A stretch of 34,406 nucleotides of DNA from Chloroflexi bacterium RBG_13_53_26. GTDB taxonomy: Bacteria > Chloroflexota > Dehalococcoidia > UBA2247 > RBG-13-53-26. Under the pieces are notes generated by a model that was not told the origin of the DNA, did not search any database, and saw only the letters and a program-made list of their open reading frames with translations. The stretch's first letter is position 1; the number at the start of each line of letters is the position of its first letter. The DNA lies in NCBI GenBank assembly GCA_001795035.1, contig MGMW01000112.1, forward strand, positions 1 through 34,406, read 5' to 3'. A program made the position numbers and the translations under genes. Shown piece after piece: positions 3,396-33,533 of this stretch.

Positions 3396-3468
3396 TGCCC
3401 TCAAGGGAATTCGAATCCCTGTTTTCGGCTTGAAAGGCCAACGTCCTAGTCCACTAGACGATGAGGGC
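3396..3468 (-). tRNA. tRNA-Glu (anticodon TTC), CCA not encoded
   Basis: Minus strand: GCCCTCA...GTCTAGTGGACTAGGAC G TTGGC-CT-TTC-AA-GCCGA AAAC AGGGA-TTCGAAT-TCCCT TGAGGGC A, a full cloverleaf. Confidence 0.97.
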
Positions 3469-20792: not shown

Positions 20793-22649
20793 TTATCTCA
20801 GCACCCGTTCGTCGCCAACACGTCGGGTGATCTTCTGCTCATCAAGGTGTTCCATCAGAGCCAGGGCGTACTTGCGGCTGGTTTGAAAGAGATCGCGCAC
20901 TTCCGCCACCGTTATCTTGCCGTGTGATTTGACGTGGGCGATAACACGTTCCACCATTTCATCATAGGCCGAGGCGGCAAAGATGACATTTTCGGCTACC
21001 TTCACTACCTTCCGTTGCTCGATCAGCAGTTCGAGCAGTTCCTGATCCATGGTTGTCTCGCTGGGCGGGGAATAGGGGTTTTGGGTCAAAGGCCTGAGGA
21101 AAGCATCTACGGCAGCCTGCTGCCCTTTTTTCAGCTCTATCCGATGAGAAGGCAGATAAACGAGTTTGCCAGCCTCCGCCAGCGCACCGTCCCGCACAAG
21201 TTGCTGCACTGCCGCAGGGAATGAGCCAGGGGGGATCGTCAGCTTGCTCTTCAGCTCCTCTTTGGGCATACCTGAACGGAGAGGGAACTGCTGATGGTAA
21301 CGCCCCACTGCTCGCGTTACTTTGTCTGTCAGACGCCGCCAACCCGTAGACGAAAAGAGCAGCGCATGAGACCCTTTGTCGCCAAGCATCACCAGCTTAC
21401 TTTCAAAAAGCAGGGATTCTATAGCCTGCTCTACTTCGGATTGAGATAGGCTGGAACGGGTCAGTAGCTCACCCATCGCCAGAGGCTCTTGGGCCTCCAG
21501 GGTTGCCAGTAGTATATCATTAGGCCCGCCCTTCTCCCTCGCAGCCAGTCCCTGAATGGTGCTCGCCTGAAAGCGGCGGTGGCGTCTTGGATAGGCATCC
21601 ACAATCTCGCCGCCACCCAGAGTGTCCTTAGAGGAGCGAATGACGAAGAGGTCACCCTTGACCACAGCCACCGGACGAGAGAGGGCTATCTGTGCCCAAC
21701 TCCTATCCCCGGGTTCAAGCTTTTCTTTTTCCAGCAATCGCACCTTTCCGATTGCCTCAAGGGCATTGCTGTGGAAAGTGATCTCGGCGTTATGTCTCAG
21801 AGGGTGAGTCACCCTGGGAAGTAGCTCTATCTTGACATCCACTACTTTTGTAGGGCGCAACCAGTCAGGGGTGGTCAACACATCGCCACGCTCCAGTTGA
21901 GCCGTGGACAGGCCTGACAGGTTAGCTGCCACTCTGCTTCCGGGGGAAGCGGTTTCCACCTTCCTTTTGTGGGTCTGGAGCCCGCGCAGGCGTGCCTTGA
22001 AGCGAGACGGGAGTATTTCTACCTCCTGTCCCACCATGAGGTTTCCGTCCACAAGCGTCCCTGTCACTACAGTGCCGAAGCCGGCGATGGTGAATACCCG
22101 GTCAATGGGAAGCCTCGGTCTGCCGACGTCCCTTTTGGGTTGGGTGGCGTCCAGAAGACGATCAATGGTAGCCACAAGTTCAGGCAGACCTTCTCCGGTT
22201 ACCGCAGACACGCCGATGATGGGGGCTGGAGCCAGAGCAGTGCCAGCTATGACCTCTTTGACCTCCATGGTGACCAACTCCAGTAGTTCCTGATCTACCA
22301 GGTCCTTCTTGGTGATAACGACAATCCCCTTTTCCAGACGAAGCAGGTCGAGGATGGCCAGATGCTCCCTCGTCTGCGGCATCACACCCTCATCGGCAGC
22401 GATGACCAGCAGGGCCAGATCGATACCCCCCACCCCAGCCAGCATATTCTTGATGAACCTCTCATGCCCTGGAACATCGACGATGCTGACTTCCCGACCA
22501 CTGGGCAACTTCAGCCAGGCAAAGCCGAGGTCGATAGTCATGCCCCGCTCTTTCTCTTCGGTCAGGCGGTCGGGGTCGATACCGGTTAGCGCCTCAACCA
22601 GGCGGGATTTGCCATGGTCTACGTGGCCAGCCGTGCCAAGAACAAACAT
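20793..22649 (-). CDS. selB: Selenocysteine-specific elongation factor
   Basis: Motifs [32 protein letters not shown], and the C-terminal winged helix [13 protein letters not shown]. Confidence 0.97.
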
Positions 22650-22652
22650 ACC

Positions 22653-23705
22653 CTACCCCTCTATGATGATCATTTCCTTGGGTTGCCCTACTACCTCTCC
22701 AACAATTCTAGCCTCAACCACGCCAGCTTTGTGCAATCTGGAAAGCAATAGGTCTGCTTTGGCAGCGCTGACCGCGATGAACAAACCACCGGAAGTTTGT
22801 GGATCGAAGAGGACGTCTTGCACATATTCTGGGACTTCAGTTGCCTTCTTCACCATGCTGGAACGGAACTCCTTGTTACGGTATGTGCCTCCAGGGATCA
22901 TTCCCATCTGGGCAAACTCTATGGCCTCAGCAAACACGGGGACAGAAGCAGCGCGAATCTTCATACCGATCTCACTGTCCTGGATCATTTCACAGGCATG
23001 TCCCAGAAGGCCAAAACCTGTGATATCGGTACAGGCATTGACTCCGATTTCCTGCATCGCTTCGGAGGCTACCTTGTTGAGAGTGGCCATATGGCCGGCG
23101 ACTTTGGTCACGGTTTCTTCACCTGCCACCCTCCCTTTGATAGCGGTGTTGATGATGCCTGTGCCCAACGGTTTCGTCAGTATCAGCTTGTCTCCTGCCT
23201 TGGCTCCTGTCTTGGTGATCACTTTGCTTGGGTGCATGACACCAGTGACAGAGAGCCCGTATTTCAACTCCGTATCATCAACACTGTGCCCACCGACTAG
23301 CACCACACCAGCCTCCCTCATTTTCTCCAGCCCGCCCCTCAGAATTTCCCTCAATACCGATATGTCCAGAGTCTTGATGGGGAAGCAGACTACATTCATG
23401 GCGGTGAGGGGTTTGCCTCCCATGGCATAAACGTCGCTAAGGGCATTGGCCACCGCGATCTGCCCAAAGGTATAGGGATCATCGACAATGGGCGTGAAGA
23501 AGTCAATGGTCTGTATGATAGCCAGATCTTCGCTCAGCTTATACACACCAGCGTCGTCAGCCTTCTCCAGCCCCACGATGAGATTGGGGTCATGGATCAA
23601 GGGCAAGCCACACAATGCCCTGTCCAGGTCCCCTGGACCCAGCTTGGAAGCTCAACCTGCGCCGCGAACAGTCTCGGTGAGCCTGGGGTGCCCTTTGTCG
23701 TTCAT
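22653..23705 (-). CDS. selD: Selenide, water dikinase (selenophosphate synthetase), selenoprotein with Sec18
   Basis: ATG 23705 with SD AAGGAG reads [20 protein letters not shown](23652-23654)-ASKLGPGDL in frame with the ORF-track CDS. The U sits in the conserved G-[C/U]-x-x-K motif. DDAGVY, DFFTP and DITGFGL are present. Confidence 0.95.
23622..23638 (-). promoter_or_regulatory. Bacterial SECIS element of selD
   Basis: Perfect hairpin GTCCAGG-GGA-CCTGGAC starting 13 nt after the in-frame UGA, with a G-rich loop. Confidence 0.8.
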
Positions 23706-23743
23706 TTACTTCTCCTTCGACCGATTCTCACCCATATGAGGTG

Positions 23744-23971
23744 CTAGATCGGGTGAATCCCCTGAATCTCTATCTGCTTCTTCTCCAGAATAGCCTTGAC
23801 GCTCGGCTCATCTGGCCGGTCAAAGCGGAGGCAAATGCCACAGTCCGAGCTGAGTTGACGGGGTACGGGTATGAGCTTGATGGCCACGCCCGTTTTCTTG
23901 AACAGCTTCTCAGCCTGCAGGGCATTGCTCGTTGAGTAAAAGAGGACTACGCTATACTCTGCGGTTTCCAT
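23744..23971 (-). CDS. DUF3343 family protein (selenium-cluster associated)
   Basis: F.STSNAL.AEK, IPVPRQLSSDCG motif, and selenium-cluster context. Confidence 0.88.
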   Translation of the reverse strand: METAEYSVVLFYSTSNALQAEKLFKKTGVAIKLIPVPRQLSSDCGICLRFDRPDEPSVKAILEKKQIEIQGIHPI

Positions 23972-23986
23972 TCAACCATTCTATCA

Positions 23987-24568
23987 TCAAAGAGAAATGA
24001 TCTTGTCAGCGTCAAGCAATGCTGCGGTAATATCATACATGTTGGAAACGCGTCCTACCTCCACCGCCTCCTTCAGGTTATAGTACCCCAAGCAGGTACC
24101 ACACGCCAGTATCTCAACCCCCTGCTTCTCCAAAGCCCGAAGGTCACCTATCACCTCGGAGTCCCTGGCCACCAGTTTGACACCGCTGTTCATGAAGATG
24201 ATTCTGCTGGGCCTGGTTTCCGCCTCAGTCAGAGTATGCATGAAGCTGCGCATCAGCGTATTCCCCAGAATATCATCTCCCCGCCCTATGGTGTTGGATG
24301 AGATGAGGAGCACATCCGACTTAGTGGCAGGAGTGACTGAGGACTTCTCCAACCCGCTCACTTTCCTGGTCAGGTGTAGGTAAGTTGCTTCACCCTTCTT
24401 CTCCACAGATACCTGGAATCCCCGGCTGTCTGCCAGACGGGAAACATTCTGTTTAGCCGTCTCGTTATCTACGATCACAAACACTTCATCAGCTTTTTCC
24501 AACGCCTTTTTGGTCAAGACCACAGGTTGAGGACAGGCCAGACCACGCGCATCCACGTTTTCAGACAT
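23987..24568 (-). CDS. yedF: Selenium metabolism protein YedF (TusA + DsrE-like domains)
   Basis: Motifs VDARGLACPQPVV, GRGDDILG..LM, FMNSGVKL, ACGTCL, VSNMYDI. ATG at 24568. Confidence 0.9.
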   Translation of the reverse strand: MSENVDARGLACPQPVVLTKKALEKADEVFVIVDNETAKQNVSRLADSRGFQVSVEKKGEATYLHLTRKVSGLEKSSVTPATKSDVLLISSNTIGRGDDILGNTLMRSFMHTLTEAETRPSRIIFMNSGVKLVARDSEVIGDLRALEKQGVEILACGTCLGYYNLKEAVEVGRVSNMYDITAALLDADKIISL

Positions 24569-24569
24569 T

Positions 24570-25727
24570 CTAAAACCTCGCTTTGGTGGCAATGATTCTT
24601 CGCACTGCCTCCAAGGTTCCCTCTATATCATCGTCTGAAGTGAAGTAGCCGGGACTCAGCCTTATAGTCCCCTGAGGGAACGTTCCTAGCGTCTTGTGTG
24701 CTATGGGCGAGCAGTGCAATCCCGGGCGACACATAATCTGATGGTACTCCTCTAGTTGCATGGCCACTTCTGAAGGAATGAGCCCGGAGATATTGAAAGA
24801 GACGACCGCTACCCGTTTTCTGGGATCACTGTCTCCGTAAATGGTGACACCCGGGATAGCCTTCAATCCATCGATGATTGATCTTGTCAGCACCTGTTCC
24901 CTTTTCTGTATTTCATTTACACCCTGCTCCAGAACGAAGCGCACTCCAGCACCCAGGCCAGCCAGACCCACCGTGTTGGGTGTTCCACTCTCATACTTGT
25001 CAGGCAGAAAATCGGGCTGGTACTCATGTTCGGAGCGGCTACCCGTGCCTCCATATTTGAGAGGTTCGATGCTGGATTCAATACCTTTGCGAATGTACAG
25101 GCCGCCTGTTCCCTGCGGCCCGTAGAGTCCCTTGTGCCCAGAGAAGGCCAGCAGATCGATATGCATCTCCTCTACATCGACGGGATAGCATCCCATGGTC
25201 TGAGCCGCATCAATCATCAGAAGCACTCCGCGACGGCGGGTAATCTGGCCCACTTCGGCTACGGGCAGAAGGGTGCCCACGACATTGGAGGCATGATTGA
25301 GAATGACGAGCCTGGTATGCGGACCAACAGCCTGCTCTACGTCATGGGGATTGAGGAACCCTTCGGAAGAGCATTTGACCACGGTTACTTCGACACCCAG
25401 TTTCTCCATATGACGCAGTGGTCGCATCACCGAGTTGTGCTCCATGCTGCTGGTGATCACATGGTCACCAGGATGCAGGAGTCCTCGTATCACCACATTC
25501 AAGGCTTCGGTGGCATTCGAGGTAAAGACGATACGCATCGGATCACCGATGCCGAAGAGCATGGACAGGGACTCTCTGGTCTCATAGATAATGCGGCCTG
25601 CTTCAATGGAAAGCTGATGTGCGGAGCGGCCGGGGTTGGCCCCCGTATGGCGCATGAAATTATCCATCGCCTGATATACCGCTTCTGGTTTAGGCCAGGA
25701 AGTAGCCGCATTGTCCAGATAAATCAT
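24570..25727 (-). CDS. Cysteine desulfurase / selenocysteine lyase family PLP enzyme
   Basis: Motifs YLDNAATSWPKP, EHNSV, DAAQT, SGHKGLYGP, RPGLHCSP. Confidence 0.93.
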   Translation of the reverse strand: MIYLDNAATSWPKPEAVYQAMDNFMRHTGANPGRSAHQLSIEAGRIIYETRESLSMLFGIGDPMRIVFTSNATEALNVVIRGLLHPGDHVITSSMEHNSVMRPLRHMEKLGVEVTVVKCSSEGFLNPHDVEQAVGPHTRLVILNHASNVVGTLLPVAEVGQITRRRGVLLMIDAAQTMGCYPVDVEEMHIDLLAFSGHKGLYGPQGTGGLYIRKGIESSIEPLKYGGTGSRSEHEYQPDFLPDKYESGTPNTVGLAGLGAGVRFVLEQGVNEIQKREQVLTRSIIDGLKAIPGVTIYGDSDPRKRVAVVSFNISGLIPSEVAMQLEEYHQIMCRPGLHCSPIAHKTLGTFPQGTIRLSPGYFTSDDDIEGTLEAVRRIIATKARF

Positions 25728-25767
25728 CTCGCGCCCTATCCTATGCTCTTCGACATGAGATTATAGC

Positions 25768-25986
25768 CTACTTTGACGATGGGCTCAGCAGCAGGCGAAA
25801 TCCGTCTTCGATCCTCTCCACCTTGACGGAATAACCCCTGCTTCTGGCCAGGCGAGAGACATTCTCCCTGGAGACCTCGCTCTCCACAAGGACAGACAAC
25901 GGTGCGCTCGGGTTATTGTCAATCGCTTCTTTGGTCTTGACTACGGGTATAGGGCAGGAGAAACCTCTGGCATCTACCTCCATCAT
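25768..25986 (-). CDS. TusA/SirA-like sulfur (selenium) carrier
   Basis: VDARGFSCPIPVVKTK motif. Confidence 0.9.
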   Translation of the reverse strand: MMEVDARGFSCPIPVVKTKEAIDNNPSAPLSVLVESEVSRENVSRLARSRGYSVKVERIEDGFRLLLSPSSK

Positions 25987-27062
25987 CAGGATTGCCTCCT
26001 TTCCTTCATGAGGAAACCAATGACCAGGGCAATGGCCAGTCCGATGCCCACTGCCCAGGCACCAAACGTAGCTACTCCCTTGGTGCTGGCAGCCAGGCCG
26101 AAGTTATGAGCCACAGCCGCGCCAGCTATCATACCGAGGACCGTCATGACGGCATCAGTGTCTCCCTCACCAGAGAGGATCATCTGGCGCAGGGGACAGC
26201 CACCGAGGAGAGTAGCTGCCAGCCCTACCAGTGACATGCTGAAGAAGTTCCACAGGTGATTGTTATGAGCTATTGGCTGATCACTGAAACCCCAGTGACC
26301 CATTTGGCCGAGGATGAGGTTGGTAACCAGTGCCCCGACGAAGAAGGCCGCTATGATGCTAAAAAGGTGAATGTCCTTAATCAGCATCAGATCTCGCCAG
26401 CCCCCCACGAAGCACATCCTGGTCCGCTGAGCTAGAAAGCCGACGCCCAGTCCAATGACCAGAGCTACCCACAGCGCAGCGTGGAGCGCCCCGGGGCCCG
26501 TGGTGCTGGAGAAGATGAAATATGGGGTGAAGATGGCAAACAGGAGAAGGACTATTGTGAATGCAGGGAAAAGCCATCCCGGTAGGGCTGGCAGCTTGGT
26601 GGATCGACCGAGGTTGAAACCTCGCTTGAGGAAGAGGATCCCCAGGAAAGCACCAAAGATCAAGCCAACGAGAGCAGTGATCCCATTAAGATCGCCACCA
26701 GCCAATCGCAGCAAAGCTCTTACAGGGCAGCCTAGGAACACCAGGGCACCGATCATCATCAGGGCACCCAGCAAAAAACGAACTAGAGGCGCAGAGCCAC
26801 CTCTAGTTCGAAATTCCTTGAAGGCAAAAGCAGCGATGAAGCTGCCAAGCACTAGCCCCAGTATTTCAGGGCGGATGTACTGCACCACCTCCGCTCGGTG
26901 CAAGCCGAGCGCTCCGGTGATATCTCTCAGGAAGCAGGCGGCGCAGAAGCCCATGTTGGCTGGATTGCCCCACCTGACTAGTAACGAAGCGAGGACTCCG
27001 AAGACCAGTCCGGAGAAGATCAACAATATACGCGGATTGAGCGATTGAAAGAATCGCCGCAA
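25986..27062 (-). CDS. yedE: YedE/YeeE family putative selenium transporter
   Basis: Multi-TM protein with GNPANMGFCAACFLRDI, LGCPVR, QRTRMCF and GGCPLRQ. TTG start with SD AAGGAGG. Confidence 0.92.
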   Translation of the reverse strand: MRRFFQSLNPRILLIFSGLVFGVLASLLVRWGNPANMGFCAACFLRDITGALGLHRAEVVQYIRPEILGLVLGSFIAAFAFKEFRTRGGSAPLVRFLLGALMMIGALVFLGCPVRALLRLAGGDLNGITALVGLIFGAFLGILFLKRGFNLGRSTKLPALPGWLFPAFTIVLLLFAIFTPYFIFSSTTGPGALHAALWVALVIGLGVGFLAQRTRMCFVGGWRDLMLIKDIHLFSIIAAFFVGALVTNLILGQMGHWGFSDQPIAHNNHLWNFFSMSLVGLAATLLGGCPLRQMILSGEGDTDAVMTVLGMIAGAAVAHNFGLAASTKGVATFGAWAVGIGLAIALVIGFLMKERRQS

Positions 27063-27138
27063 AACAGTTACCTCCTTTTCTAACTATTCTGGTAGAGACT
27101 TCTCTGACGAAGAGCCACGCCCTTCGGCCCAGATTGGT

Positions 27139-27156
27139 TCACGTTCGGCGATTCAT
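27139..27156 (-). promoter_or_regulatory. Leader uORF M-N-R-R-T-UGA upstream of yedE (candidate Sec-sensing element)
   Basis: SD-like AGGGGGTGAG (27161-27170), then ATCG, then ATG AAT CGC CGA ACG TGA. The read-through frame stays open across the yedE SD/start to TGA at 26866-26868. Confidence 0.55.
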
Positions 27157-27218
27157 CGATCTCACCCCCTCTCGGCCAGAATCTACGGGAAGAAATACTA
27201 TTGTTCCCGCTTCCTGAA

Positions 27219-27248
27219 TTTGTACCATCTCGGGAATCAACTTGTCAA
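27219..27248 (-). promoter_or_regulatory. Putative promoter of the yedE operon
   Basis: TTGACA-N18-TACAAA with a TG extension; the -10 is imperfect. Confidence 0.5.
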
Positions 27249-27269
27249 AACATGCTTTTCCTCGCCAGT

Positions 27270-27298
27270 TTGCCCCTTAATGAGGCCTGTGCTACATT
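27270..27298 (+). promoter_or_regulatory. Putative promoter of selA
   Basis: TTGCCC-N17-TACATT with a TG extended -10. Confidence 0.5.
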
Positions 27299-27322
27299 TG
27301 TATGGCCAAGGAGAGGATCAGG

Positions 27323-28714
27323 ATGTCGAACGGTTTTCGCAGTCTCCCCAGCGTGGACAGGTTGTTGGCAGATGAGCGCCTCCAGCCGCTTGAGGCAATA
27401 TATTCTCGCCAATTCATTACCGATGAAGTGCGCCTGATCCTTGAAGAGAGTCGTTCATCGATTGTCAGAGGTCAACCCGCCCCCTCTTTTGATGAATTGT
27501 TGGCATCGGTTTGCGCCCGTGTTGAGTCGCTGGGCCAAATCACACTAAGGCCGGTGATCAACGCCACTGGCGTTGTTCTGCACACCAATCTGGGCCGTGC
27601 GCCCGTCAGCCAGGAAACCGCAACTGCTATGAAGGCGGTCTCACTGGGCTATGTGAATCTGGAATTCGATCTTGAAAGTGGGGCACGCGGGTCTCGCGAA
27701 GTCCACATATCCTCCCTGCTGTGTCGCCTTACGGGGGCCGAAGCAGCCCTGGTGGTGAATAACAACTCCTCTGCAGTTCTCCTCGCCTTGAGTGCCCTGG
27801 CGAAGAAGAAAGAGGTGATTGTGTCCCGAGGGCAAGCAGTAGAGATCGGCGGTGGTTTCCGCATCCCCGATGTGATGCGCCAGAGTGGGGCCAAGCTGGT
27901 GGAAGTGGGTACCACCAATTGTACCTACCCATCGGACTACGAGCAGGCGATTACCGCCAGAACAGCGGCACTGCTCCGTGTGCACTCAAGCAACTTCAAG
28001 ATAATCGGGTTCGCCCAAGAAGTATCTGTAAATGAAATCGCCGAACTGGGGGCAAGGCACAATCTGCCCGTGCTGGATGATTTGGGGAGCGGTTGTCTCC
28101 TGGATACCACCAGATTTGGATTGGGCCCGGAGCCTATGGTTCAGGACAGCATTGCTGCCGGCGTCGCCTTGGCCTTCTTCTCGGGTGATAAGCTCCTGGG
28201 TGGCCCACAAGCCGGCATCATTGTGGGCAAGAAGCACCTCATTGACAAACTCAGGAAACACCCCCTGGCTCGTGCAGCGCGCGTTGACAAAACGAGAATG
28301 GCCGGGCTGGCTGCTACCCTTCTCCATTATCTCAAGGGAGAGGCAGAGCAGAAGATACCAGTGTGGCAGATGATATCGATGCCTCTGGAGGAGATAGAGA
28401 AGCGGGCCAGGGAGTGGTCAGAGCACTTCAAAGGACTGGCCACCGTGACGGAAGGCGAATCTGTAGTGGGAGGGGGTAGCCTGCCGGGAAGCACTCTGCC
28501 TACCAGGCTTCTGGTCATCAAGGGATCAGCCAGGGCAAAAGAGCGGAATACGGTTCAAGCACTGGCGGCCCGGCTAAGGGCTCACCAGCCACCGGTTGTG
28601 GGACGGATAGAAGGTAATTCACTGCTTCTCGACCCCCGCACTGTGTTCCCTGATGAAGACCGTATAGTCCTTGAGGCACTTCGCCACGGCCTGGATTCCC
28701 TGGGAGTGGGCTGA
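27323..28714 (+). CDS. selA: L-seryl-tRNA(Sec) selenium transferase
   Basis: Motifs VINATGVVLHTNLGRA, EIGGGFRIPDVM, EVGTTN, FSGDKLLGGPQAG. ATG at 27323 has SD AAGGAG. Confidence 0.97.
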   Translation: MSNGFRSLPSVDRLLADERLQPLEAIYSRQFITDEVRLILEESRSSIVRGQPAPSFDELLASVCARVESLGQITLRPVINATGVVLHTNLGRAPVSQETATAMKAVSLGYVNLEFDLESGARGSREVHISSLLCRLTGAEAALVVNNNSSAVLLALSALAKKKEVIVSRGQAVEIGGGFRIPDVMRQSGAKLVEVGTTNCTYPSDYEQAITARTAALLRVHSSNFKIIGFAQEVSVNEIAELGARHNLPVLDDLGSGCLLDTTRFGLGPEPMVQDSIAAGVALAFFSGDKLLGGPQAGIIVGKKHLIDKLRKHPLARAARVDKTRMAGLAATLLHYLKGEAEQKIPVWQMISMPLEEIEKRAREWSEHFKGLATVTEGESVVGGGSLPGSTLPTRLLVIKGSARAKERNTVQALAARLRAHQPPVVGRIEGNSLLLDPRTVFPDEDRIVLEALRHGLDSLGVG

Positions 28715-33172: not shown

Positions 33173-33204
33173 AAAAAGAAAACCGACCCCAGTGGGGTCG
33201 GTTT
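33173..33204 (-). terminator. Intrinsic terminator forming the riboswitch expression platform
   Basis: AAACCGACCCC-ACT-GGGGTCGGTTT stem followed by TCTTTTT on the minus strand. Confidence 0.85.
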
Positions 33205-33264
33205 CACTACTAGCTCCTCACCGCCCAAGTGACCATCTACGGGCAGTGATTCGTCGCTCCCCTG
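33190..33264 (-). ncRNA. c-di-GMP-II riboswitch aptamer
   Basis: CAGGGG AGC GACGAA TCACTGCCCG TAGA TGGTCAC TTGGGCGGTGA GGA GCT AGTAGTG AAACC GA CCCCACTG. It shows P1 GGGG/CCCC, P2 AGC/GCT, a kink-turn GA pair, a long P3, the pseudoknot GGT-CAC/GTG-AA-ACC, and the hallmark GAGYTAGTAGTG(A/C)AACC. Confidence 0.88.
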
Positions 33265-33533
33265 TGTCTATTTACTAGATTTATTCCAGGTATCTTGTTT
33301 CTATCCTATTAGTCGGAGGAAGACGACCAAAACCCTCAATCCCATCTGTGCATACCTTTCCAGCCAAATCAAGGGCAGAAAGAGTAACCAAAATGAGAAC
33401 GTGCACGTTATTCAGGAGCCCTGCCGCCAGCCTGAAGCGCTCATCTGCCCAACTGCACAATGTCAGAATTCTTGTGTGAGATGGCAGAATGCGGACTTGA
33501 CGCAACCCGCAGGAAAACGAGGTGGATCTGGAC

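Follow-up and report, generated by a model that had tools for sequence, protein, structure and literature searches.

The 34,406-nucleotide (nt) stretch analyzed here, positions 1 to 34,406 of contig MGMW01000112.1 from Chloroflexi bacterium RBG_13_53_26 and hereafter called the window, carries on its minus strand an operon that opens with yedE, and on its plus strand a divergent selA gene. The 240-nt intergenic region between selA and yedE contains a compact leader element, in which a short, strongly initiated reading frame ends in UGA and is followed by a hairpin resembling a bacterial selenocysteine insertion sequence (SECIS). On the strength of its conservation, this leader is likely to be a regulatory element that responds to selenocysteine (Sec) and SelB. 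An earlier note, made from the letters of the window alone, had interpreted it as a leader-peptide sensor built around a Sec codon, and overall the comparative sequence evidence supports that interpretation, with a different hairpin from the one first drawn. The parts of the leader and the start of the operon are as follows.

27161-27172, minus strand: extended Shine-Dalgarno (SD) sequence of the short frame, GAGAGGGGGTGAG, with the core GGGGGTGA at 27169-27162
27156-27139, minus strand: short frame ATG AAT CGC CGA ACG TGA (MNRRT, then stop or Sec), five sense codons behind a strong SD
27141-27139, minus strand: UGA of the short frame, a stop or candidate Sec codon, TGA in 37/37 aligned copies
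27126-27108, minus strand: SECIS-like hairpin CGAAGGGC-GUG-GCUCUUCG, with an 8-bp stem and a GUG triloop (RNAfold, RNAalifold and pair counts)
26866-27138, minus strand: read-through frame of 90 codons plus TGA (26868-26866), out of frame with yedE, whose SD and start it crosses
27077-27071, minus strand: yedE SD, AAGGAGG, of which AGGAG is invariant in a second alignment (A2)
27062-25986, minus strand: yedE, TTG start, first gene of the operon, assigned from Pfam Sulf_transp and homologues

YedE homologues were found in 21/41 close relatives and in 56/401 sampled Dehalococcoidia genomes. Not a single letter of the SD, short frame or hairpin differs among the six closest leaders, while their flanks drift; more distant leaders show the same design in other letters. 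An alignment of 23 copies (A1) formed the basis of a covariance model (R1), which scores 78.5 bits at this site in the window's own genome, where the next match reaches 14.9 bits. At a threshold of E 1e-4, R1 matches yedE leaders in 28 of 56 genomes with YedE from the class sample, plus 3 genomes of the close-relatives sample, and the model-guided alignment holds 37 copies; locus L007 lies on a contig without upstream sequence. Three loci with short TGA frames recognized by eye (L030, L033 and L037) and a fourth, L049, are unmatched at this threshold and were excluded from all counts. L049 keeps the hairpin (L049:600-641) but has no strong SD, and its ACG TGG stands where others have ACR TGA; it may be a decayed or re-wired copy. 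The concern raised earlier, that short frames ending in TGA arise by chance, is answered by conservation of the whole module far beyond its flanks and by the single strong match of R1 in its own genome.

A pattern scan of one genome per species, covering 185,579 species, points in the same direction. Among the 80 stretches listed of the 91 found, 22 precede yedE, and all 22 have the ATG and the TGA in frame. Twenty-one of these come from metagenome-assembled genomes (MAGs) labelled Dehalococcoidia, Dehalococcoidales, Chloroflexi(a) or Chloroflexota, and the remaining one from a 1.9-kb contig labelled Gammaproteobacteria. The other 58 listed stretches have no YedE nearby; their ATG and TGA are out of frame in 34 cases and in frame in 24, and they include a recurrent stretch that we take to be 16S rRNA. 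In the remainder of the phylum Chloroflexota, YedE was found in 7/301 sampled genomes, three of them outside the class. One of the loci outside the class, L163, shows by eye a leader of the variant that we call type B ∼190-260 nt upstream of yedE, with the SD GGGGGTGACGCT, the peptide MLVLRP ending in TGA and the hairpin GUGCAC-GUC-GUGCAC; it is unmatched by R1 at E 1e-4.

The earlier description of a strong SD before a short ATG...TGA frame agrees with the letters at 27169-27162 and 27156-27139. Across the 37 aligned copies the GG.GGTGA of this SD is near-invariant, and some copies have GGAGGTGAT in its place, presumably the full complement of the 16S rRNA 3' tail. The TGA is kept in every one of the 37 copies, with an entropy of 0 at its three letters, which bears out the earlier expectation that the stop would never be TAA or TAG in orthologous leaders. 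In A1 the third positions of the last three sense codons show entropies of 1.7, 1.5 and 1.2 bits, as against 0-0.8 bits at positions 1 and 2, reflecting wobble variants such as CGA/CGC/CGG/CGT/AGG and ACG/ACA/ACC; the wobble position directly beside the TGA changes repeatedly between ACG and ACA while the TGA stays fixed. The encoded peptides include MNRRT, MKRRT, MQRRT, MRLRT, MRRRT, MVNRRT, MANRRT, MLNRRT, MFNRRT and MVNRST, as well as MYHRKT, MMKQRT, MIKQRK, MKRRK, MPRRL, MCRVM, MVVLHRRV, MGPLRPRT and MAASQRKT. Together, the extended SD and the coding-type variation at third positions indicate that the short frame is translated. The frame thus has what is expected of a leader peptide, namely its own SD, conservation with coding-type variation and, in its UGA, a codon for the amino acid that would be sensed.

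In the window's genome TGA closes 43% of frames of at least 300 codons and 52% of short ATG frames. Its retention by chance would have a probability of ∼5e-3 to 3e-5 for 8 to 16 independent lineages, a rough estimate, as related lineages do not count independently. When 60 Dehalococcoidia yedE leaders were scanned automatically, with nested starts counted separately, 82 SD-led short frames ended in TGA, 13 in TAA and 8 in TAG; among those followed by a hairpin at SECIS distance the counts were 42, 1 and 0.

The hairpin first proposed, GGGCCG-AAGGGCG-TGGCTC, can be written from the letters but is neither predicted nor conserved according to RNAfold, RNAalifold and pair counts. The conserved hairpin is that at 27126-27108, and its triloop begins 20 nt after the UGA, which disposes of the earlier caveat that the spacing (14 nt) was shorter than in selD: in the SECIS of selD in the window (UGA at 23654-23652, GUCCAGG-GGA-CCUGGAC), the loop likewise starts 20 nt past the UGA. 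Further SECIS from the same genome were collected by searching it for Sec-prone families and folding the sequence after each in-frame TGA; AhpC-TSA (PF00578) gave no match in this genome. The resulting set, with the leader hairpin for comparison, is given below.

C11:3925-5607, plus strand: molybdopterin oxidoreductase, likely selenoprotein gene, loop GUC 19 nt after the UGA
C68:5-385, minus strand: molybdopterin oxidoreductase, likely selenoprotein gene, loop GGC 23 nt after the UGA
C59:9278-9646, plus strand: MvhD/FlpD-type protein, likely selenoprotein gene, loop GGA 23 nt after the UGA
selD SECIS: loop GGA 20 nt after the UGA
yedE leader hairpin: loop GUG 20 nt after the UGA

The four genuine SECIS have stems of 6-8 bp and triloops beginning with G, and the predicted geometry of the leader hairpin, with its 8-bp stem, fits this set exactly. 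The published bacterial SECIS model places the loop ∼16-37 nt from the UGA, with a G at the loop start. Because the corrected hairpin matches the geometry of the SECIS in its own genome, the idea of a Sec sensor is strengthened by the correction, and we infer that SelB would bind the leader hairpin and that Sec would be inserted at its UGA.

Covariation supports this hairpin as a conserved RNA structure. The distance from the UGA to the loop is kept in 23/23 rows of A1, three of them being shifted by one base. The 8-pair helix has 82.1% of its cells paired, compared with 68.0% in shuffled alignments (0/500 reach the observed value), and its covariation score of 0.438 stands against 0.202 in the shuffles (0/500) and a maximum of 0.362 in slid controls. 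The covarying hairpin that the earlier note looked for is therefore present, in its corrected form, with covariation above 500/500 shuffles. All eight pairs change on both sides (pair 63:77, for example, is AU 10, GC 7, GU 2 and UA 1 times), and the inner pairs 66:74 (GU 8) and 65:75 (UG 3) have no non-standard or unpaired cells; G-U pairs in the stem favour an RNA read from the minus strand over a DNA palindrome. In the type-B rows (L054, L056 and L057) a wholly different stem, GGUGCAC/GUGCACC or GAUGCA/UGCAUC, occupies the same position.

If the UGA is read through, the frame remains open to 26866 as described earlier, adding 90 codons for 96 positions in all, and it crosses the yedE start out of frame, at offset 1. 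The openness foreseen for related leaders is also seen: in 26/26 distinct short leaders the upstream open reading frame (uORF) is stop-free from the UGA to the yedE start (55-79 nt), compared with 4/26 and 7/26 for the other two frames, and its offset from yedE is 1 in 25/26. This count leaves out L030, L033, L037 (which would show one stop in the read-through frame), L049, L055, the type-B leaders L054, L056 and L057, the leaders followed by a junk frame (L011, L014, L015, L016 and L018) and the remnants L019 and L020, and it drops exact duplicates (L086 = L034, L117 = L005). In dinucleotide shuffles, individual spacers are open with a probability of 0.14-0.70; multiplying the highest value from each cluster gives 1.1e-3 when leaders are grouped at 70% identity (8 clusters) and 3e-7 when they are grouped at 80% (16 clusters). 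Read-through would extend ∼155-215 nt into yedE in 24/26 leaders, or in eight of them up to the end of the available DNA; for the remaining two, L027 and L042, the figures are 83 and 92 nt. Conservation of the read-through peptide is confined to the residues that the hairpin (..RAWL..) and the SD (..KGG..) encode. A small selenoprotein gene was considered for the element and rejected, as the read-through peptides share only these residues.

These properties bear on the possibility that the element has nothing to do with Sec decoding, being a riboswitch, a protein operator or a small selenoprotein gene with an incidental short frame. Many leader motifs are conserved, and an inverted repeat can be read by a dimeric protein. 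We nevertheless regard this explanation as very improbable, given the three-base period of the variation, the invariant TGA, the G-U pairs of the stem, a read-through peptide that is unconserved beyond its hairpin-coded residues and overlaps yedE out of frame, and the recurrence of the same design with unrelated sequence in a second phylum.

The spacing of the leader bears on another explanation, in which the hairpin is a SelB operator only: SelB-GTP-Sec-tRNA bound to it would block or slow ribosomes without Sec insertion, and the short frame would serve to bring ribosomes to it. Precedent comes from E. coli, where Thanbichler and Bock reportedly described in 2002 a SECIS-like element in the selAB leader, in a Sec-machinery operon, that acts by binding alone, with neither an upstream frame nor a UGA; the presence of selB within the controlled operon also fits. 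However, such an operator would have no use for an in-frame UGA that is invariant and placed exactly at SECIS distance, nor for a read-through frame kept open, and the hairpin lies at least 44 nt from the yedE start, too far for direct occlusion. The UGA comes closest to the yedE start in L027, at 55 nt, and the conserved 6-bp stem extends to ∼29 nt past the UGA. We therefore consider binding alone improbable.

A second phylum, entered by way of a MAG labelled Deltaproteobacteria, has YedE in 123/301 sampled genomes and provided 70 yedE leaders, 69 of which could be scanned. An SD-led short TGA frame followed by a hairpin is found in 8/69 by an automatic rule and in 12/69 by eye, falling into three groups. 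The first encodes peptides ending in ..PLSLI or similar (MGRPLHPLSLI, MAKLQTPLSLI, MGKPQTPLSLI, MGMSYHPLSLI, MGKLQTPLSIR and MEKPYTPLPL; loci L166, L199, L204, L216, L223 and L232), with synonymous changes at every conserved codon, TGA without exception, and hairpin loops of GGU or GGC. The second encodes shorter peptides (MPYHSLI and MTYLHIS in L167 and L176) and has AGUU loops, and the third (L181, L182, L185 and L217) has tandem in-frame UGA-NNN-UGA with the hairpin loop 21 nt after the second UGA. Since these sequences are unrelated to the element in the window, the design either arose more than once or has diverged beyond recognition. Taking both phyla together, we give slightly better than even chances to a wider proposal of a selenocysteine attenuator, in which the sole regulatory codon is a SECIS-guided UGA contested by release factor 2 (RF2) and Sec insertion, occurring in at least two phyla, with peptide ends (..RRT and ..PLSLI) that tune the contest and with tandem UGAs in some leaders. 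A separate observation in the ..PLSLI family is a second short frame lying within the read-through frame, accompanied by a CU-rich stretch complementary to its SD.

Several variant loci illuminate what the leader controls. Five leaders (L011, L014, L015, L016 and L018) have an SD and a start codon at the usual distance behind the module, and these open a ∼125-codon junk frame, in which a decayed duplicate of the yedE N-terminus occurs together with a stretch rich in Pro and Ala; ∼380-435 nt separate the leader ATG from yedE at these loci. The stop of this frame overlaps the real yedE start, as GTGA or ATGA in the letters of L011 and L015, with L014, L016 and L018 alike in translation. At these loci the unit of leader and first start has been kept, with its output apparently handed on by translational coupling, and the overlap argues for control at the level of translation. 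At L020 (1489-1782, minus strand) the leader stands before a 59-residue yedE remnant, and the aminotransferase and TusA genes come directly after the remnant; what the leader serves is therefore the operon, not yedE alone. At L019 the leader occurs with a yedE fragment that contains a TGA.

The divergent upstream open reading frame was scanned at ten Dehalococcoidia yedE loci that lack the leader. It is of LysR type in seven (L009, L013, L017, L026, L028, L032 and L038) and of OmpR type in two (L039 and L041), and the intergenic regions of these nine are AT-rich. This agrees with the LysR-like selenium regulator beside yedE and sel genes proposed by Lin et al. 2015 (PMC5322559). From their gene arrangement, the RNA leader and such protein regulators look like alternative solutions.

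The genes that the leader would control include two of the Sec machinery. The remainder of the operon and its surroundings are arranged as follows.

20793-25986, minus strand: remainder of the operon behind yedE, from the TusA/yedF-like gene to selB
25986-25768, minus strand: TusA/yedF-like gene, downstream of yedE in the operon
25727-24570, minus strand: class-V aminotransferase gene, same operon
24592-23987, minus strand: TusA-DsrE fusion gene, same operon
23971-23744, minus strand: Se_S_carrier protein gene, same operon
23705-22653, minus strand: selD, with an in-frame Sec UGA at 23654-23652
22649-20793, minus strand: selB, the last gene given for the operon
27302-28714, plus strand: selA (Pfam SelA, 2.3e-139), divergent, from the intergenic region shared with yedE
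27219-27248, minus strand: candidate promoter of the yedE operon, recognized by eye, with -35 TTGACA at 27248-27243 and a TG-extended -10 TACAAA at 27224-27219
27185-27210, minus strand: 5' leader hairpin GCGGGAA...UUCCCGU (RNAfold), confined to the genus

The candidate promoter would place the short frame within the 5' leader of yedE. Its TTGACA and the positions of its -10 are kept in L001-L006, and TTGACA-N17-TATAAT occurs at the corresponding place in the L034 and L040 leaders. A promoter and terminator scan of the window's leader returned 0 sites, the candidate being missed because its -10 lacks the final T. For the hairpin at 27185-27210, conservation is absent beyond the closest relatives.

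We consider the following proposal reasonably probable as a whole: the leader would be a leader-peptide sensor for the 21st amino acid, exerting negative feedback by read-through occlusion. The mRNA that runs from yedE to selD and selB would begin with a highly translated 5-codon frame, a UGA and a SECIS-type hairpin at canonical distance. When SelB-GTP-Sec-tRNA(Sec) is available, it would bind the hairpin and the UGA would be decoded as Sec. Ribosomes loaded at the very strong SD would then run on for ∼90 codons, out of frame, over the SD and start of yedE and ∼190 nt beyond, and this traffic would lower initiation at yedE; the downstream genes, being dependent on yedE translation, would fall too. 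When selenium is short, RF2 would terminate translation after five codons, the yedE start would be free, and the operon for uptake and Sec synthesis would be made. The contest at the UGA between RF2 and SelB-GTP-Sec-tRNA would thus act as a gauge of Sec supply, with negative feedback on selD and selB. Of the mechanisms that would call for all four of the translated frame, the fixed UGA, the hairpin at SECIS distance and the open frame, such a contest is the simplest. Negative feedback is favoured by the overlap geometry, by the presence of selD and selB in the controlled operon and by the induction of yedE under selenium starvation in Methanococcus maripaludis, where its mRNA rises by 5.3 log2 (PMC11097638). 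We are less confident of the negative sign and of occlusion than of a leader that responds to Sec and SelB.

A number of observations weigh against this proposal or limit its support. The relatives compared are not independent, and all counts therefore overstate the support. SelB (PF09107) is present in 306/401 genomes of the class (genome G258 being included in this tally only), and its co-occurrence with the leader does not discriminate, having no power as a test because nearly all genomes with YedE have SelB. No Rfam family, SECIS families included, matches the leader at its gathering score; at E values up to 10 the region 26900-27400 yields only a chance match to a long non-coding RNA, a search of low power in that Rfam also misses the selD SECIS. 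The fold of the whole leader is not unusual (z = -1.84), and no RNA run is listed for 26950-27350. Stops before yedE interrupt the read-through frame in the long type-B leaders L054, L056 and L057 (2, 3 and 1, respectively), and in the second phylum this frame ends 25-36 codons after the UGA, also before yedE, so that start occlusion is not general. Blocking of the yedE start, as suggested earlier, thus cannot be a universal step. RNAalifold on 26 leaders yields the hairpin only, and no conserved helix hides the SD or the start of yedE; in a weak test, z-scores for duplexes with the yedE start range from -4.4 to +1.7. A pairing of the uORF and post-UGA sequence with the yedE start (GAAUCGCCG with CGGCGAUUC) is striking in the window and in some lineages; it was dropped as a general feature, being lost in the same RNAalifold analysis. 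Finally, the conserved peptide ends R-R-T and P-L-S-L-I are not required by plain Sec read-through; their role may be to adjust how readily release or Sec insertion occurs at the UGA, or they may be a sign of nascent-peptide arrest.

Arrest of the TnaC type would have the ..RRT or ..PLSLI peptide stall the ribosome at an RF2-dependent UGA in response to a selenium compound or to RF2 activity, with the hairpin serving only as a pause or platform; downstream expression would then be set by the stalled ribosome and not by Sec insertion. That two unrelated peptide families conserve their C-termini through synonymous changes, for which plain Sec read-through has no need, speaks for arrest, and the stop is always the RF2 codon. 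We still judge arrest unlikely. The hairpin lies at SECIS distance and has a G-first loop like the SECIS of the same genome, the read-through frame is open in all 26 short leaders, which pure stalling would not need, and in the tandem UGA-NNN-UGA leaders the position of the loop, 21 nt after the second UGA, implies that the ribosome is expected to pass the first.

The sign of the response would be reversed if control lay at the level of transcription, read-through ribosomes shielding the leader from Rho or a terminator so that the operon is on when selenium is plentiful. In Treponema primitia, translation through a SECIS raises elongation of the fdhF-Sec transcript (PMC3892789), and the scan found a terminator-like site in the second-phylum leader L176. 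In the window's leader, however, no terminator-like site was found, nor did the scan and RNAalifold on 26 leaders reveal alternative structures there (terminator/antiterminator or SD sequestration). Translation of yedE begins 76 nt after the UGA and would itself provide coupling, and in the one organism with data yedE is induced by selenium starvation and not by plenty (PMC11097638). Transcriptional coupling is accordingly quite improbable in our view, and we retain the sensor based on the contest between RF2 and Sec insertion, with negative feedback, as the preferred interpretation.

Elsewhere in the window, Rfam identifies a cyclic di-GMP-II riboswitch aptamer at 33187-33267 on the minus strand (59.4 bits against a gathering score of 53.5) and a tRNA gene at 3396-3468 on the minus strand (62.6 bits). 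The cyclic di-GMP-II class is known mainly from Firmicutes, and this example lies in a Dehalococcoidia MAG.

How bacteria sense selenium and set the level of their Sec machinery is a largely open field. Lin et al. 2015 describe the selenium regulatory network as not understood (PMC5322559), and according to the M. maripaludis study a dedicated selenium transporter is not known (PMC11097638). If the proposed mechanism is true, the yedE leader would be the first leader peptide to sense the 21st amino acid, by recoding of a stop codon, and yedE would be functionally tied to selenium supply. At ∼100 nt, the leader would also be a compact natural switch responsive to selenium, of use in reporters and in engineered selenoprotein expression. 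For annotators and selenoprotein finders it carries the caution that a SECIS-guided UGA can be regulatory and not part of an enzyme. No UGA leader before yedE is described in the full-text literature searched, a scope that excludes most subscription journals, or in the available parts of PMC5322559, PMC13188914, PMC11097638 and PMC3892789.

The leader has likenesses to several known systems and differs from each. The LysR-like regulator proposed by Lin et al. (PMC5322559) would act on the same gene set; it is a protein, whereas the window has selA and an RNA leader in that place. In T. primitia (PMC3892789), decoding versus termination at a SECIS-guided UGA serves as a selenium signal, as proposed here, but there the UGA lies inside a selenoprotein gene and the read-out is transcript elongation, whereas the yedE leader has a 5-codon frame before a gene that does not encode a selenoprotein. 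Like the selenoprotein SECIS of bacteria, the leader has a hairpin after an in-frame UGA with a G-first loop ∼20 nt on; unlike them, it lies outside any conserved coding gene, and its read-through product is unconserved and out of frame.

The leader of E. coli selAB, like that of yedE with selD and selB behind it, is said to combine a SECIS-type hairpin in front of a Sec-machinery operon with possible feedback by SelB-Sec-tRNA. The yedE leader differs from it in that its short frame is translated, its UGA is invariant and lies at decoding distance, and its read-through frame is open. Amino-acid attenuators such as trpL and hisL have a strongly translated leader with codons of the sensed amino acid and tandem regulatory codons, which the UGA-NNN-UGA of some second-phylum leaders resembles. 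In contrast to trpL and hisL, the yedE leader would sense supply at a recoded stop codon, which makes termination and elongation the alternatives instead of stalling and elongation, and the window's leader showed no terminator/antiterminator pair. We rate the yedE leader as a new form of leader-peptide control, outside the curated families, that borrows the SECIS machinery.

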